Shown here: piece by piece, positions 3,535 through 62,789 of the stretch | How positions within the stretch are numbered: the stretch's first letter is position 1 | How the letters are laid out: the number at the start of each line of letters is the position of its first letter | Notes under the pieces: model-generated | What the model saw: the letters and a program-made list of their open reading frames with translations, nothing else | Databases searched by the model: none | Told to the model about the DNA's origin: nothing | Position numbers and translations under genes: made by a program | Assembly (NCBI GenBank): GCA_018702955.1 | Contig: JABJEK010000058.1 | Span: 47,150-111,149, forward strand | Length of the DNA: 64,000 bases | From: Rhodospirillaceae bacterium | GTDB taxonomy: Bacteria; Pseudomonadota; Alphaproteobacteria; UBA6615 | Direction of reading: 5' to 3'

Positions 3535-4866
3535 CTAGCCCGCAGCGTCAAAATGGTGCACGAGCTTGGTCTTGTAATCCGTGCGCGGCAGGCTCCCGAA
3601 CGGCACGACCTCGACCCTGGTCGTGACCACGAGTTTCGCGCGGATGGCCTTTTCGATGGCTTCACCGAGGCCGGCGCCAGGGCTGCTGCCCTCCGCCGCC
3701 TCGACGTGAACCGGCAGCGGCGGCAATTGCTGTACGCCCTGCCGGCTCGGGCGCACCAGCATGATCCCGCTGACATCCGGGCGAAACTGGTTCACCACCT
3801 CCCGGATCGCACTGGGGAAGATGTTGACCCCGCGCACGATGAGCATGTCGTCGGTCCGCCCGATGCAACGAATGCGCGGCCCCGTGCGGCCGCTCGCGAC
3901 CGGCCCCATGCTGACCGTGACATGGTCGCGCGAGCGAAAACGCAGCAGGGGCGCGGCTTCCTGCTGCAAATGGGTATAGACCGGCTCGCCCTGGACCCCG
4001 TCCTCGAACGGCAAGGTTTCCCCGGTCTCGGGATCAATCAGCTCCATGTGGATGTAGTCCCGGGCGAGGAAGTTCATGCCCGCCTGTTCCGGCCCCTCCC
4101 CGAACATGGAAATCGACATTTCACCGAGCCCCATCACCTCATGCACCTTGGCGTTGAACGCCGCCTCGATCTGCGCCCGAACTTCCGGTTCACCCCCGCC
4201 TGGCTCACCGCCGGCCACGAGCGTCTCCAGTCCGCACGCCGCCGGATCAATGCCGCGTGCACGCGCGGCTTCGGCGATATACAGGAAATAAGATGGCGTC
4301 CCGGGCATCGCCTGCACCTGAAAACGCTCCAGCGCCGTCAGGAGACGATCGGTGTTGCCGCTGCCCACCGGCACCATGCGCACGCCCAGCGCGATCATGG
4401 ATTCGTGCACCGCACCCGCCACGAAGGGGCCGGAATTATAGGTGGTGACGACCCGGTGATGGGGACGGATACCGGCGGCGAAATAGCTGCGGTTCGATGT
4501 CTGGACCCAGCGCTTGAGGTCACCCTGGGTAACGGGAATATAAAGCGGCGTACCCGACGTCCCGCTGGTTGAATAAATCCGCACCACATCGTCGAGCGGA
4601 GCCGCAAGCTGCTTACCCAGCGGCAGGTGCCCGGCCTGGCTGGCACGCAGTTCATCTTTGACCGTGAACGGCAGGTGCCGCAGATCATCCAGCCCGCCGA
4701 CGGATTCGGGCGTCTTGAAACCGGCCGCCTTGAACTTCTCGCGATAAAACTCGGACCGCGCGAACAGATACTCGATCTGTTTGCGGTAAACCGGCTCGTC
4801 CTTCTGTTTCTGGTCCGCGAGGTCCCGGGTCTCGGCCTCGGGATCAAAGAGATCGGCGGCCGACAT
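3535..4866 (-). CDS. Phenylacetate-CoA ligase (PaaK) family acyl-CoA ligase
   Basis: YSTSGTSGTP AMP-binding loop; GGEPGG, LLRFRSRD and GRTDDMLIVRGVNIFPS motifs. Confidence 0.85.
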   Translation of the reverse strand: MSAADLFDPEAETRDLADQKQKDEPVYRKQIEYLFARSEFYREKFKAAGFKTPESVGGLDDLRHLPFTVKDELRASQAGHLPLGKQLAAPLDDVVRIYSTSGTSGTPLYIPVTQGDLKRWVQTSNRSYFAAGIRPHHRVVTTYNSGPFVAGAVHESMIALGVRMVPVGSGNTDRLLTALERFQVQAMPGTPSYFLYIAEAARARGIDPAACGLETLVAGGEPGGGEPEVRAQIEAAFNAKVHEVMGLGEMSISMFGEGPEQAGMNFLARDYIHMELIDPETGETLPFEDGVQGEPVYTHLQQEAAPLLRFRSRDHVTVSMGPVASGRTGPRIRCIGRTDDMLIVRGVNIFPSAIREVVNQFRPDVSGIMLVRPSRQGVQQLPPLPVHVEAAEGSSPGAGLGEAIEKAIRAKLVVTTRVEVVPFGSLPRTDYKTKLVHHFDAAG

Positions 4867-8069: not shown

Positions 8070-8117
8070 TGGTCCTGGCCACCCACCCCCAGTATGTCCC
8101 GTGACGAAAGCAGTCGT

Positions 8118-8894
8118 ATGAGCGCTGAGCATATCCTGACCGAAACGCGTGATCGCGTGCTGTATGTGACCATCAACCGGGTGGAGAAACACAACGCGCT
8201 CGCGATTTCGATTATCGACGAAATCGGCGAGACCTTCCGCGCGGCGGCAAAGGACGAGACACTTGTGGCGGGCGTGCTGCGTGGAGCGGGCGAAAAGACC
8301 TTCGCCGCCGGCGGCGACTTGCGTGAACTGGCCGGGCTGCGCACCCAGACGGAAGCCGAAAAAATGGCAATCGATGCCAAGGCAGCATTTAACGCCATCC
8401 GGGATTTCCCCGTCCCGGTTATCGCAGGGCTCAACGGCAACGCCTTCGGCGGCGGGGCCGAGCTCGCCGTATCGTGTGACTTCCGCGTCGCGGCGGCCCA
8501 CGCCAAAATCGGCTTCGTCCAAGGTCGGCTAGCCCTGGCCACGGCATGGGGCGGCGGCCCGGACCTGCTCGACCTGGTCGGCCGCGCGCGGGGCCTGCGG
8601 CTGATGAGCACCGGCGAAATGCTCGACCCGGCAACAGCACTGGAAATTGGCCTGTATGACGCGGTGGGTCAGGCCGCCGAGCCCTTCGACGAAACAATCG
8701 AGGGCTTCCTCGCACCGATCCGCAAGCAGAAGCCGCAATCCATGCGTGCGTTCAAGGCCGTCAGCGATTCACACCGGCGCGGAGATGCTCGCACCGCGAT
8801 GCAAGAGATAGAGACCTGCATGTTCGTGAAGACCTGGGTCCATGACGATCACTGGGAGGCGGCCGAAAAGGTGCTTCCCACGAAGAAGGGCTGA
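8118..8894 (+). CDS. Crotonase-family protein, ECHDC1 (alkylmalonyl-CoA decarboxylase)-like
   Basis: FAAGGDL, GGGAELAVSCDFR and FVQGRLALATAWGGG motifs; the second catalytic Glu position is Gln. Confidence 0.8.
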   Translation: MSAEHILTETRDRVLYVTINRVEKHNALAISIIDEIGETFRAAAKDETLVAGVLRGAGEKTFAAGGDLRELAGLRTQTEAEKMAIDAKAAFNAIRDFPVPVIAGLNGNAFGGGAELAVSCDFRVAAAHAKIGFVQGRLALATAWGGGPDLLDLVGRARGLRLMSTGEMLDPATALEIGLYDAVGQAAEPFDETIEGFLAPIRKQKPQSMRAFKAVSDSHRRGDARTAMQEIETCMFVKTWVHDDHWEAAEKVLPTKKG

Positions 8895-47490: not shown

Positions 47491-48462
47491 ATGTCCGAGA
47501 CCCATCACACCAAGGTTCTGATCCTTGGTTCCGGCGCCGCCGGCTGCACCGCGGCCATCTACGCCGCCCGCGCCAACCTGAAACCCATGATGGTGCACGG
47601 CATGCAGCCGGGTGGTCAGCTGACGATCACGACGGAAGTCGAGAACTATCCCGGCTTTGCCGACGTAATCCAGGGCCCCTGGCTCATGGAACAGATGGTC
47701 GAACAGGCCGAGAAAGTCGGTACGGAGATCTTCGACGATCTGATCGTTGATGTGGATTTCAGCACCCGGCCCTTCACCTGCACCGGAGATTCCGGCGATA
47801 TTTACACCGGCGACACGGTCATCGTGGCAACGGGCGCATCGGCCAAGTGGCTGGGCCTCGAAAGCGAACAGAAGTTCTCGGGCTTCGGCGTGTCGGCTTG
47901 TGCGACCTGCGACGGGTTTTTCTACCGCGACAAACCGGTCGCCGTGATCGGCGGCGGCAACACGGCCGTCGAGGAAGCGCTGTTCCTCACCAATTTCGCC
48001 TCCAAGGTGACCCTGATCCATCGGCGCGACGAACTTCGTGCCGAAAAGATCATGCAGGATCGCCTGATGCGTCACGAGAAGATCGACGTTGCCTGGGATA
48101 CGGTCCTGGAAGAGGTCGTGGGCACCGAAGACCCGCCGGGCGTGACCGGGGCCAAGCTCAAGAACATCAAAAGCGGCGACAGCCAGGATCTGGAAGTGGA
48201 CGGCGTCTTCATCGCCATCGGGCATGACCCGAACACCAAGATATTCCAGGGCAAACTGGACATGGACGACGAAGGCTACCTCATCACCGCGCCCGACAGC
48301 ACCGAGACCAACATTCCCGGTGTGTTCGCCGCAGGCGACGTCAAAGACAAGATTTATCGTCAGGCCGTGACCGCAGCCGGGATGGGCTGCATGGCCGCAC
48401 TCGAAGCCGCGAAGTATGTTGCGGAGCATGAAGACGCGGCCACGCAGAACGCGGCCGAATAA
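47491..48462 (+). CDS. trxB: Thioredoxin-disulfide reductase
   Basis: [28 protein letters not shown] and GVFAAGDV motifs. Confidence 0.98.
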
Positions 48463-48514: not shown

Positions 48515-49414
48515 ATGGCCATGGATTGGGACAAACTGCGGATTTTTCATGCCGTCGCAGACGCCGGCAGCTTCACCCATGCGGGCGAAGCCCTGCATCT
48601 GAGCCAGTCGGCGGTCAGCCGGCAAATCAGCTCCCTCGAGGACAGCCTTGGTTCGCGGCTGTTCCACCGCCATGCGCGCGGCCTGATCCTGACCGAACAG
48701 GGCGAGCTGTTGTACCGCACCGTGCACGATGTTTTCGCCAAACTGACGATGGTCGAGGCCCGGCTGACGGATTCCCAGGAACGCCCCCAGGGGCCGCTGA
48801 AGATCGCCACGACCGTCGGTCTGGGATCACTTTGGCTGACGCCGAGAATCAACGAGTTCATCGACCTGTACCCGGATATCGAGGTGAACCTGATCACCAC
48901 CGACGAAGAGCTCGATGTCTCCATGCGAGAGGCCGATTGTGCGATCCGGCTAACCCCGCCGACCCAGGGCGACCTGATCCAGCGCCGCCTCACCCGGGTC
49001 CACACCCATGTCTTCGCGTCACCGGAATACCTGCAAAGCCGGGGCATGCCCGAGAAAGTCAGGGATCTGGCGAACCACGACCTGATCGTCTACGGCGAGG
49101 ATGTCGCAATGCCCGCGCCAAATATCAACTGGCTGCTGAACGCCGTGCGTGACGCGACCAACGAGGAACCCCGCAAGGTCCTGACCCTGAATAACCTGTA
49201 CGGCATGTTCCGCGCGGTTGAGGCGGGGATCGGGGTGGCCGGATTACCGGACTTTCTTGCCCGGGAAGCGAAGAATCTGGTGCGAATCCTGCCTGAACTC
49301 GAGGGGCCGGGAAACGATGCGTATTTCGTATATCCGGAAGAAATGCGGAGTTCCAAGCGAATTGCGGTTTTCCGCGATTTTCTGCTCGGAAAAGTCGCCG
49401 AAACCCGCTTCTAA
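48515..49414 (+). CDS. LysR family regulator, probable LsrB/VtlR orthologue
   Basis: MDWDKLRIFHAVADAGSFTHAG HTH; lies directly downstream of trxB, as lsrB does in rhizobia. Confidence 0.9.
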   Translation: MAMDWDKLRIFHAVADAGSFTHAGEALHLSQSAVSRQISSLEDSLGSRLFHRHARGLILTEQGELLYRTVHDVFAKLTMVEARLTDSQERPQGPLKIATTVGLGSLWLTPRINEFIDLYPDIEVNLITTDEELDVSMREADCAIRLTPPTQGDLIQRRLTRVHTHVFASPEYLQSRGMPEKVRDLANHDLIVYGEDVAMPAPNINWLLNAVRDATNEEPRKVLTLNNLYGMFRAVEAGIGVAGLPDFLAREAKNLVRILPELEGPGNDAYFVYPEEMRSSKRIAVFRDFLLGKVAETRF

Positions 49415-49458
49415 AATACGGGCTTCTCCCAAGCCGCTGAAATCAAACAATTTTAAGG

Positions 49459-49475
49459 TATGCAATACGCGCATA
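49459..49475. promoter_or_regulatory. LysR-type binding box
   Basis: Perfect TATGC-N7-GCATA (T-N11-A core), about 66 bp upstream of the inferred sRNA start. Confidence 0.65.
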
Positions 49476-49532
49476 TCTGGTTAACGGTTTAGCGGCCGCC
49501 TCCTCAGGGCGTTGGCGCACTATCATTGGGTA

Positions 49533-49681
49533 CACACGGTGCGACACGCACCACGCCGCTGGTTTGTCCCTCCCAGTAAACCAGTGGCTTCGAGGCCCCT
49601 GAACACGGCCTCGGCGTCTCCCAAAGACGTAACGCCTCCCTGTTCACCTGCCGGGCCCTTCGGGGCCCGGCTTTATTTTTT
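49533..49681 (+). ncRNA. Putative AbcR-like anti-Shine-Dalgarno sRNA (~150 nt)
   Basis: -10 TATCAT at 49521-49526; successive hairpins with CUCCCA in or next to two loops (49570-49575, 49618-49623); terminator at 49650-49681. Confidence 0.65.
49650..49681 (+). terminator. Rho-independent terminator of the putative sRNA
   Basis: GCCGGGCC-TTCGG-GGCCCGGC followed by TTTATTTTTTT. Confidence 0.85.
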
Positions 49682-49750
49682 GGATTTCGGGTTTGCGCAA
49701 GCACGCGCCTGAACACGCAGTCGGGCGTAGCCGCGACGCCGTGTCGGCGC

Positions 49751-50734
49751 CTAGCGGAAGTAGGAGTCGCCCGCGTCGGATGGATACATGCCGGCGACAA
49801 ACTCGGCATAACCATTGTAGAGCCTGGTCGGCACCCGGTCGTTCTGGCGACCGCCCAACAGCCACTCGGACGCCTGGCTCCAGCGCGGATGATCGATCTC
49901 CGGATTGACGTTGGCCCAGAAGCCGTACTCCTTGTCCTGCAGCGATTCCCAGAAGGTCGTGGGCTGCTTGTCCGTGAACGAGAAGCGGATGATCGACTTG
50001 ATGGATTTGAAACCATACTTCCACGGCACCGCCAGGCGGATCGGCGCGCCGTTTTGCGGCCGCACGGGCTTGCCGTACATGCCGGTGACCATGAAGGCGA
50101 GATCATTGGTCGCCTCTTCCATCGTCAGGCCTTCCTGATAAGGCCACGGATACCAGAACTGCCGCAGACCCGGCATCTCTGCCTTGCTCTCGGCGATTGT
50201 CTGCATCATCACATACTTCGCACCCGACGTCGGCTTGGCCAGATCGACCAGCTGCTTCATCGGAAATCCGGACCAGGGCACCGTCATTGCCCAGGCTTCG
50301 ACGCAGCGATGGCGATAGACCCGCTCCTCGAGCGAGACCTGTTTCAGCAGATCATCGATCCCGATCTCGAACTCCTTGTCGACCATGCCGTCGATGATGA
50401 TGTTCCAGGGGCGGGTCTCGAGGCGCTGTGCGGCGCGCGAAATCTGTTTGTGGGAGCCAAACTCATAGAAATTATTGTAGGTCGTCGCCTCTTTCTCTTC
50501 CGTCAGCGCGCGATCGACCGTGTATTTCTCGTTGCGCGGCACGGGATAGAGGCCAGCGGACGGATCGGGATCGGTCGCGGCCATCGCCATACCGGCGGGC
50601 AGCATGCTCGCGGTCGCCGCGATGGCGGGTGCGACACCCAGCGCTTTCACGATCTGACGGCGATTAAGATAGATATCCTCGGGCGTCACCGCGCTCTCCG
50701 GCAGCTCCCAGCCCCGCTTCACCTTCACAAGCAT
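49751..50734 (-). CDS. msrP: Protein-methionine-sulfoxide reductase catalytic subunit
   Basis: Tat signal NRRQIVK; TTYNNFYEFG, RHRCVEAW, NGAPIRLAVPWKYGFKSIK and PRWSQASE motifs. Confidence 0.95.
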   Translation of the reverse strand: MLVKVKRGWELPESAVTPEDIYLNRRQIVKALGVAPAIAATASMLPAGMAMAATDPDPSAGLYPVPRNEKYTVDRALTEEKEATTYNNFYEFGSHKQISRAAQRLETRPWNIIIDGMVDKEFEIGIDDLLKQVSLEERVYRHRCVEAWAMTVPWSGFPMKQLVDLAKPTSGAKYVMMQTIAESKAEMPGLRQFWYPWPYQEGLTMEEATNDLAFMVTGMYGKPVRPQNGAPIRLAVPWKYGFKSIKSIIRFSFTDKQPTTFWESLQDKEYGFWANVNPEIDHPRWSQASEWLLGGRQNDRVPTRLYNGYAEFVAGMYPSDAGDSYFR

Positions 50735-61601: not shown

Positions 61602-61757
61602 TCCCAGAGTCTGCCCCCGACGAGCCGCATCAATCAATTTTTTTGATAACCCGGTTGTCGGGGGCCGCCCGATGAAGGCAAGATCATCGCAATAAAACAA
61701 GAACGAACCGCCTAATGGGGGAAATCCAACAGCGGACACCAAACAGGGAGAATCGAG

Positions 61758-62789
61758 ATGAAAGCTAAACTACTGACAGGTGCCATTGCGGCCGCCGGCC
61801 TTATGGCAATCAGCGCCACGGCAAACACCGCACATGCGGGCACGCTGGACGACGTGCGCGCCGCGGGTGAATTGAAGTGTGGCATTAACACCGGCCTTCC
61901 CGGCTTTGCCTTCACCGACGACAAGGGCAACTGGACCGGCTTCGACGTCGCCTACTGCCGCGCACTTGCCGGCGCCGTGCTCGGCGACCCGGACAAGGTG
62001 AAATGGGTCAACCTGACCGGCAAGAACCGTTTCCCGGCACTGACCTCGGGCGAAATCGACGTCCTTTCACGTAACACGACGTGGACCTTCTCGCGCGATG
62101 TCGACCTCGGCTTCACATTTGTCGGCGTGAACTATTATGACGGCCAGGGCTTCATCGGCCGGACCGCGCTGGACGCCAAGAGCGCCCGGGAACTCGATGG
62201 CGCGTCCGTCTGCATCCAGACAGGCACAACCACCGAGTTGAACCTCGCCGACTTCTTCCGGATCAACAAAATCGATTATGAGCCGGTGCCGATCGAGACC
62301 AACGAAGAAGCCCGCAAGGCCTATGAGGCCGAGCGTTGCGACGTTTACACGACGGATGCCTCGGGCCTCGCGGCGACGCGCTCGACCTTCCCGGACGCGG
62401 ACGCGCACATGGTCTTTCCGGAGATCATCTCCAAGGAGCCACTCGGACCGCTGGTCCGCCATGGCGACGATCAGTGGGCGGATGTCGCGCGCTGGACCCT
62501 GAACGCTCTGATCAATGCCGAAGAGCTGGGCGTGACCCAGGAAAATGTCGCAGACCTCGCCAAGGGCAGCGACAATCCGGAGATCAACCGGATGCTCGGT
62601 TCCGAGGGTTCGCTGGCCGAGATGCTGGGCCTGTCCACGGATTGGGCGGTCAACGCGATCCGGGCTGAAGGCAACTACAGCGAGATTTTCGAGCGGTATC
62701 TCGGAACGAACACCTCGCTGGGCATTTCCCGCGGCCTGAACGCGCTGTGGAAAGATGGCGGCATCCTGTACGCGCCGCCGATGCGCTAA
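61758..62789 (+). CDS. aapJ: General L-amino acid ABC transporter substrate-binding protein
   Basis: GFDVAYCRALA, RNTTWTFSRD, VNYYDGQGF, GTTTELN and ISKEPLGP motifs. Confidence 0.95.
   Translation: MKAKLLTGAIAAAGLMAISATANTAHAGTLDDVRAAGELKCGINTGLPGFAFTDDKGNWTGFDVAYCRALAGAVLGDPDKVKWVNLTGKNRFPALTSGEIDVLSRNTTWTFSRDVDLGFTFVGVNYYDGQGFIGRTALDAKSARELDGASVCIQTGTTTELNLADFFRINKIDYEPVPIETNEEARKAYEAERCDVYTTDASGLAATRSTFPDADAHMVFPEIISKEPLGPLVRHGDDQWADVARWTLNALINAEELGVTQENVADLAKGSDNPEINRMLGSEGSLAEMLGLSTDWAVNAIRAEGNYSEIFERYLGTNTSLGISRGLNALWKDGGILYAPPMR

Follow-up and report, generated by a model that had tools for sequence, protein, structure and literature searches.

A predicted anti-Shine-Dalgarno small RNA gene at the abcR1 position, downstream of trxB-lsrB, in non-rhizobial Alphaproteobacteria

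The stretch of DNA analyzed here, 64,000 nt of contig JABJEK010000058.1 of assembly GCA_018702955.1, from an uncultured alphaproteobacterium (hereafter the window, to which all coordinates refer), carries on its plus strand, in this order, trxB, a LysR-type regulator gene, an inverted repeat, a −10 element and a segment predicted to encode a small RNA (sRNA) (Table 1). An earlier reading of the letters alone, the original prediction, had described an AbcR-like sRNA module behind trxB and a LsrB/VtlR-type LysR gene. Comparison of the LysR protein with solved structures (PDB) gave LsrB of Agrobacterium tumefaciens as the top match (9HH1, E = 8e-100); since the next LysR-type transcriptional regulator (LTTR) follows far behind at 8e-35, we assign the protein as a LsrB/VtlR ortholog, and the original prediction was right on this point. 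The true start of its reading frame is 48515 (MAMDWDKLRIF), which places lsrB 52 nt downstream of trxB. The trxB-vtlR pair is conserved across the class (PMC7486931), trxB precedes the LsrB ortholog in most of the related loci that we collected, and lsrB orthologs at 55–65% identity stand before the same RNA in other genomes. We consider it probable that positions 49459–49681 form an independent gene for a trans-acting sRNA with anti-Shine-Dalgarno (anti-SD) seeds, activated by LsrB and occupying the position that abcR1 has in Rhizobiales.

Table 1. Features of the sRNA locus, its neighbours and a candidate target, in window coordinates.
Feature	Position	Strand	Remarks
trxB (thioredoxin-disulfide reductase)	47491–48462	+	NCBIfam TIGR01292, 409 bits, above cutoff
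LsrB/VtlR-type LysR regulator, proposed activator of the sRNA gene	48515–49414	+	Pfam HTH_1 and LysR_substrate
Proposed LsrB recognition site (putative)	49459–49484		dyad TATGC-N7-GCATA at 49459–49475, centre ~−66; core ATGC-N7-GCAT at 49460–49474
−10 element CTATCA	49520–49525	+	CTATNT-like hexamer 56–62 nt past dyad start across the family
Predicted sRNA, ~149 nt	49533–49681	+	5' end inferred within a few nt from AbcR promoter geometry; 3' end in U tract
SL1, 5' hairpin GGUGCG-ACA-CGCACC	49538–49552	+	loop ACA, seedless; from the fold
SL2, 12-bp stem 49555–49566/49577–49588	49555–49588	+	loop UCCCUCCCAG; seed 1 CUCCCA at 49570–49575
SL3, 7-bp GC-rich hairpin	49591–49613	+	seedless; from the fold; compensatory changes in five-sequence alignment
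SL4, conserved penultimate hairpin	49614–49630	+	seed 2 CUCCCA at 49618–49623, in loop and top of stem
Single-stranded stretch	49631–49649	+	seed 3 CCUCCCUGUU at 49635–49644; unpaired in minimum free energy and centroid folds
Intrinsic terminator	49650–49681	+	hairpin 49650–49671, 9 G-C pairs, loop UUCG, then UUUAUUUUUU; found by terminator scan
msrP (methionine-sulfoxide reductase catalytic subunit)	49751–50734	−	converges on sRNA terminator
Candidate target, family-3 ABC solute-binding protein gene	61740–62789 (start 61758)	+	Pfam SBP_bac_3

LsrB/VtlR directly activates AbcR1 or AbcR2, and its binding to AbcR promoters and their activation have been demonstrated experimentally in Agrobacterium, Brucella and Sinorhizobium (PMC7486931, PMC8844928). 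The VtlR box, GCAT-N3-TG-N3-T, is supported by electrophoretic mobility shift assays (EMSA; PMC7486931). In the window, the right arm of the dyad runs on as GCAT-ATC-TG-GTT-A, near the published box, and the consensus of the LsrB-anchored loci described below is GCAT-N3-NG-N3-TGC. The hexamer CTATCA was judged a better −10 than TATCAT, the element originally named, which is also present (49521–49526). The −35 position (49497–49502) reads CGCCTC, which is poor, in keeping with an activator-dependent promoter; a promoter scan of the region found no sigma-70 consensus promoter at the locus.

As positive controls, we retrieved Rhizobiales loci by means of a pattern derived from the two published seeds of S. 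meliloti. Ten of them score 46–108 bits on the ar15 (AbcR) model of Rfam; these AbcR genes stand downstream of trxB-lsrB, and their LsrB proteins are 49–60% identical to that of the window. Counted from the first position of the ar15 model, the eight genes with a full dyad have its first base at −70 to −74 (a few genes have N6), GCAT lies at −60 to −63 (−61 to −63 in nine of the ten, −60 in locus L241) and the −10 element is CATATC. With 49533 taken as the start, the window has ATGC at −73, GCAT at −62 and the −10 element at −13 to −8. Judged by these landmarks, the promoter geometry of the window is that of genuine AbcR genes, with matching dyad and −10 distances. The promoter spacer also contains CCTCCTC (49499–49505, about −34 to −28), kept in L001–L003 and not in the wider family, which would be a fourth anti-SD stretch only given an upstream start.

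Folding of a 153-nt stretch yielded −70.9 kcal/mol, against −47.1 ± 3.9 for shuffled sequences (z = −6.1; 0 of 200 shuffles as good), and the predicted sRNA folds at −70.7 kcal/mol into five hairpins. The dyad, the 5' hairpin, a CUCCCA hairpin, a single-stranded seed and the terminator were all found where the original prediction had placed them. Its additional stem with a loop exists as well, but measures 12 bp rather than 11 (SL2), and its inventory, correct for the hairpins that it named, had overlooked SL3. The RNA carries three anti-SD seeds, CUCCCA twice and a third stretch in the single-stranded region, and the M2/aSD2 motif (GUUCCC / UUCCCCUC) is absent from 49533–49681, both as foreseen; CUCCCA is the tested M1 seed of AbcR (PMC5461406). 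The terminator hairpin (49650–49671) is followed by TTTATTTTTT.

Conservation was followed from the protein and from the RNA. The protein-anchored set comprises 80 loci that encode the closest LsrB relatives of the window protein: the nearest come from metagenome-assembled genomes (MAGs; 78–98% identity), followed by Kiloniella and Caenispirillum (64–65%) and Hyphomicrobiales (57–60%). The closest relatives in this comparison are alphaproteobacterial MAGs and Rhodospirillales-like genera, not Rhizobiales, which bears out the proposal of a non-Rhizobiales host. In most of these loci, the DNA 3' of the lsrB stop shows ATGC-N7-GCAT, a CTATNT-like −10 some 57–62 nt further on, a 5' hairpin, one to four variable GC-rich hairpins, ACGUC-UCCCA-GACGU GAAGCCUCCCUGUUCAACUUG and a terminator. 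Exact ATGC-N7-GCAT was found 62 times downstream of the LsrB ortholog in the 80 loci, always at a fixed distance to the CTATNT-like −10. A first covariance model (R1), with an RNAalifold structure, kept only 4 pairs, and a second (R2) was therefore rebuilt with a hand-set structure; it covers the 3' module, namely SL4, the seed and the terminator (seed alignment A2/A4). R2 detected the module in 60 of the 80 loci, always downstream of LsrB on the same strand and nearly invariant, and in a single copy in the window.

For the RNA-anchored set, an exact 26-mer of the module was matched against a one-genome-per-species collection, in which at least 120 contigs contained it. Enough upstream DNA was available for 98 matches, and in 82 of these a LsrB homolog ends upstream, on the same strand, at a distance of 135–1098 nt from the module (median 218 in the 82 linked loci), and trxB usually stands before LsrB. 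Most of the copies without this linkage keep a near-match to the box. Since the protein-anchored and RNA-anchored tests agree, the linkage between LsrB and the RNA holds both ways. By sequence, the trxB-lsrB-sRNA layout is present in well over 100 species-level genomes of non-rhizobial Alphaproteobacteria, the original prediction having suggested a search of related genomes for it; hosts among the matches listed are Azospirillum, Niveispirillum, Inquilinus, Roseomonas, Acidocella, Belnapia, Reyranella, Defluviicoccus, Stellaceae, Dongiaceae, Kiloniella and Marivibrio. In several loci (L013, at 3936–4684; L024, L039, L059, L137 and L192) two or three family members stand in tandem, each behind an ATGC-N7-GCAT box of its own, an arrangement that recalls the abcR1-abcR2 tandem.

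Base pairing within the module has been maintained. All 12 pairs modelled in R2 show double changes, and paired cells amount to 97.6% versus 80.6% in shuffled alignments and at most 42% with a slid partner, in an alignment that was fitted to the model and thus favours structure. The family consensus of SL4 is ACGUC-UCCCA-GACGU; under the same model-fitted alignment, 5/5 of its pairs show double changes, and 7/7 modelled pairs of the terminator covary across the family. When the window and four close relatives were aligned with MAFFT and folded with RNAalifold, SL1, SL3, SL4 and the terminator were recovered and SL2 was misaligned. SL2 is restricted to the clade of the window (L001–L004), where one-sided changes between the window and L001 leave the stem paired. 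A 5' hairpin stands at the place of SL1 across the family, with compensatory changes among sequences that had been picked for pairing. The most conserved part of the RNA is the unpaired seed CCUCC-UG, invariant in 77 diverse sequences, as expected for a stretch that functions as a seed.

The usual 5' hairpin of the family is GAUG(U/C)UGC-N3-GCA(G/A)CAUC, in place of which the clade of the window has GGTGCG-ACA-CGCACC. At the DNA level the usual form, GATG(T/C)TGC-N3-GCA(G/A)CATC (L006, L009, L014–L019 and many more), lies ~15–35 nt past the −10 and is also a TGC-N3-GCA dyad, so that it could double as a protein-binding site.

A permissive scan of 49380–49760 gave no match at E ≤ 10 to ar15 (RF02345, threshold 40 bits) or to CcsR/cuckoo (RF02791), the models against which the original prediction was to be checked. 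Weak similarity was seen elsewhere. The suhB/MmgR model (RF00519) aligned over its full 1–77 of 77 positions with 23.0 bits and E = 0.012 (threshold 41), SorX (RF02784) aligned over its full length with 24.1 bits (threshold 46.6), and SorY (RF02651), likewise aligned over its full length, reached 18.2 bits (threshold 111). Relatives score 28–33 bits on the suhB model, 28 for a typical member, and the three tandem copies of a Sneathiella MAG (L013) reach 28, 33 and 41.2 bits, the third passing the gathering score of 41; one family member attains 44 bits on SorX. suhB and ar15 belong to the same Rfam clan (CL00108). R2 failed to detect AbcR-type RNAs or Sphingopyxis SuhB, and therefore common descent of the whole RNA is unsupported by sequence; it does align the second hairpin of AbcR with SL4 and the two terminators with each other, treating the seed as a deletion. 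The ar15 model is itself narrow: Hyphomicrobiales loci L066/L263, L214, L224, L225, L238, L246 and L289 fall below its threshold or are unmatched (14.4 bits for L066) although evident AbcR-type RNAs (CCUCCUCCC loop, GUUCCCCUC) follow the same box there.

The window RNA and AbcR1/AbcR2 (alpha-r15, RF02345; Agrobacterium, Sinorhizobium, Brucella) share a gene position immediately behind trxB-lsrB (vtlR) in the same orientation, a dyad or VtlR box and a −10 at equal distances, CUCCCA (M1) exposed in hairpin loops together with a further single-stranded anti-SD seed, a Rho-independent terminator and, in some lineages, tandem copies. They differ in that the window RNA is predicted at ~149 nt with five hairpins, longer than AbcR as had been noted (~114–121 nt, three hairpins). 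In AbcR, M1/aSD1 (CUCCCA within CUCCUCCC) sits in the loop of the first hairpin and GUUCCC/UUCCCCUC is single-stranded between hairpins 1 and 2, whereas the window RNA has CUCCCA in SL2 and SL4 and lacks the latter motif. Its seeds occupy the middle and 3' half, with the single-stranded CCUCCCUGUU beside the terminator, and its host lies outside Rhizobiales.

The 3' 70 nt (49614–49681) resemble SuhB/MmgR/SisA-D (alpha-r8) in having a short hairpin, single-stranded CCUCCCU, ACU(U/C) and a terminator; of the alpha-r8 10-mer UUUCCUCCCU, the window shares the core CCUCCCU and has CGC for the flanking UUU. However, alpha-r8 is a stand-alone transcript of ~77–80 nt with its own promoter, whereas the module in the window forms the 3' half of a predicted RNA of greater length, with the dyad and −10 ~80 nt further upstream. 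mmgR, in addition, is not adjacent to lsrB and is controlled by NtrC and AniA via a dyad between −35 and −10, unlike the LTTR box at −66 in the window. A LysR-bound suhB gene is known from Sphingopyxis granuli, whose suhB promoter probe, shifted by a LysR protein (2025 preprint), holds TTGC-N7-GCAA; in a Sphingopyxis MAG (L321, 4874–4937) this dyad starts 58 nt before a −10 CAATAT, with the same geometry as ATGC-N7-GCAT, and no LsrB homolog was found within 8 kb of it.

SorX and SorY of Rhodobacter sphaeroides have ACCUCCCUGUU-(N)-ACCUG and a terminator in common with the window, and neither is adjacent to lsrB. SorX acts on the transporter mRNA potA and is derived from a 3' untranslated region (UTR), being processed from its parent mRNA. 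SorY has an RpoHI/HII promoter and acts on takP transporter mRNA; on account of this promoter, and with no stated link to lsrB, it was rejected as a relative. Enterobacterial OxyR-OxyS is alike in its working and unrelated: there, too, a LysR-type regulator activates an adjacent sRNA gene, but oxyS is transcribed divergently, shows no sequence relationship and does not encode a multi-seed anti-SD RNA. By sequence and structure, the 3' half of the window RNA is nearer to suhB/MmgR (alpha-r8) and SorX than to alpha-r15. This refines the AbcR-branch reading of the original prediction. The second hairpin and terminator of alpha-r15 are common to suhB, and such modules have been called "structural Legos" that accept different 5' domains (del Val et al., PMC3346310). 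The predicted RNA can best be seen as joining a suhB-type 3' module to a new 5' domain, at the abcR1 locus and behind an abcR1-type promoter.

On the reading that we favour, the LsrB/VtlR ortholog encoded by the adjacent gene would bind the dyad centred at about −66, together with its extension towards −45, and recruit RNA polymerase to a promoter whose −10 (CTATCA) is good and which lacks a usable −35. Transcription would run from ~49533 to the intrinsic terminator and release an RNA of ~149 nt. Its three C/U-rich anti-SD seeds (CUCCCA of the SL2 loop, CUCCCA of SL4 and single-stranded CCUCCCUGUU) may then base-pair to ribosome-binding sites of the GGGAG type, which would prevent translation of the mRNA and hasten its decay, with Hfq probably on the U tail. 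By analogy with AbcR, SuhB and SorX, likely targets would be transcripts that encode periplasmic solute-binding proteins or other proteins of transport or metabolism. Expression as a discrete RNA, dependence on LsrB and Hfq binding are all presumed from these features. Within the window, the Shine-Dalgarno region AACAGGGAG of the solute-binding protein gene in Table 1, which a permease gene follows, is a 9-nt complement of seed 3. A motif scan of the window for the seed complement remained at chance level, and a window-wide target ranking was discarded, its top entries being mostly spurious open reading frames (ORFs).

Several observations weigh against this interpretation. Taken alone, the dyad is no better than chance in the window, with 2 matches versus 1.84 expected (the only other ATGC-N7-GCAT, at 8374–8388, lies inside the coding ORF 8094–8894 and was dismissed as a chance match); its significance rests on its recurrence and fixed −10 spacing in related loci rather than on the window count. 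Where the published VtlR box ends in T, the window has A. At gathering score, Rfam 15 reports no family at the sRNA and only a tRNA in the whole window. The duplex of seed 3 with the solute-binding protein mRNA (−17.2 kcal/mol) was equalled by 166 of 2000 shuffles (8%), and this gene, the only in-window target found, is therefore a weak one and a candidate only. Furthermore, the cysteines of the proposed redox switch (C144/C273) are missing from most of the LsrB orthologs in this group. The window protein keeps the equivalent of C144 and has Val for C273; among the 80 orthologs, position 144 is Val in 52 and position 273 either Val or Thr in 69, and many are entirely devoid of Cys. The thiol-switch model of Agrobacterium is therefore inapplicable to them, although trxB stays adjacent.

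Finally, scanning showed no intrinsic terminator between the lsrB stop (49414) and the sRNA, whose own terminator is the first after lsrB. Some or all of the RNA could therefore stem from read-through and processing. It might be a structured 3' UTR of the trxB-lsrB mRNA, perhaps processed like SorX, whose model is the best weak Rfam match and which has such an origin, and the dyad would then serve lsrB autoregulation or termination control. We regard this as unlikely: throughout the family a −10 at fixed distance from the dyad is followed directly by the 5' hairpin, the promoter geometry equals that of AbcR promoters, copies unlinked to lsrB retain a dyad-like box and tandem copies each have their own. 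It is also conceivable, though we would give it slender odds, that the sRNA is real and independent but that a regulator different from the adjacent LsrB binds its dyad, or that its promoter is constitutive. LsrB dependence is argued from adjacency and from likeness to boxes tested in other species, the LysR protein that binds the Sphingopyxis dyad, whose geometry is the same, is encoded away from suhB, and Budnick et al. saw no effect of LsrB on AbcR in S. meliloti (PMC7486931), a result that was later contradicted (PMC8844928). Set against this are the linkage of RNA and LsrB in 82 of 98 independent loci, the fit of the right arm to the EMSA-supported VtlR box and the poor −35, which argues for an activator; a different regulator is the less economical reading.

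Highly improbable, in our judgement, is that the region holds no RNA gene, and consists instead of a terminator with conserved protein-binding or repeat DNA, or of a small-protein gene. VtlR does activate small-protein genes in Brucella, and a 66-codon ORF (49512–49712) overlaps the region. However, SL4 differs by a 2-nt indel between the window and L001, whose LsrB proteins are 98% identical, and many non-triplet indels separate other relatives; the pairs covary, the window has one copy and the orientation is fixed, and conservation is higher in the unpaired seed than in the stems. We thus retain the independent, LsrB-activated sRNA gene as the favoured explanation.

LTTR-activated anti-SD sRNAs of the suhB/ar15 clan are a known kind. 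What is new is the architecture, the taxonomic range and the combination of an alpha-r8-like body with an abcR1-like promoter. Neither Rfam 15 nor the searchable literature describes this sRNA family or a LsrB-sRNA pair outside Rhizobiales, although the alpha-r8 phylogeny (Lagares 2016) may already count some of the loci as alpha-r8. Literature searches on the module sequence, or on LsrB/AbcR with Rhodospirillales genera, returned nothing relevant, the Azospirillum sRNA catalogue does not mention the family, and a 2025 paper calls LsrB unique to Rhizobiales. LsrB/VtlR and AbcR have been investigated in the context of symbiosis and virulence, as a feature peculiar to Rhizobiales; our data suggest that the circuit of regulator plus RNA is far wider than has been described. 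Regulator, box and adjacent multi-seed anti-SD sRNA are conserved in free-living and plant-associated lineages, including Azospirillum, Roseomonas, Acidocella, Reyranella, Kiloniella, Sneathiella and many MAGs. For these groups, the predicted sRNA is the first well-defined candidate for a global riboregulator of transport and metabolism, from a family missing from Rfam 15 at curated thresholds. It also offers a natural test case for the "structural Lego" idea of alpha-proteobacterial sRNAs.

More tentatively, and with less confidence than we place in the gene itself, much of the Alphaproteobacteria may have inherited the trxB-lsrB-sRNA unit from a common ancestor. AbcR, the Rhodospirillales-like family and perhaps the LysR-activated SuhB of Sphingomonadales would then stem from one LTTR-driven anti-SD sRNA gene built on a suhB-type 3' module, into which lineage-specific 5' domains were swapped. 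Since LsrB orthologs outside Rhizobiales are mostly cysteine-free, the ancestral input of such a unit would have been something other than thiol oxidation, and the redox switch of Agrobacterium a later addition. In any case, the thiol-switch model of LsrB cannot be general.

Two further observations concern the flanks of the predicted sRNA. Right behind the lsrB stop, a hairpin GGCUU-CUCCC-AAGCC (49421–49435) offers an additional CUCCC loop, which is not kept in L001. Downstream, msrP lies on the opposite strand, and the sRNA therefore cannot be the leader of a downstream gene. msrP converges on the sRNA terminator in the window, where the space directly after it is too small for msrQ, and in many related loci, giving a redox-flavoured trxB-lsrB-sRNA-msrP neighbourhood.

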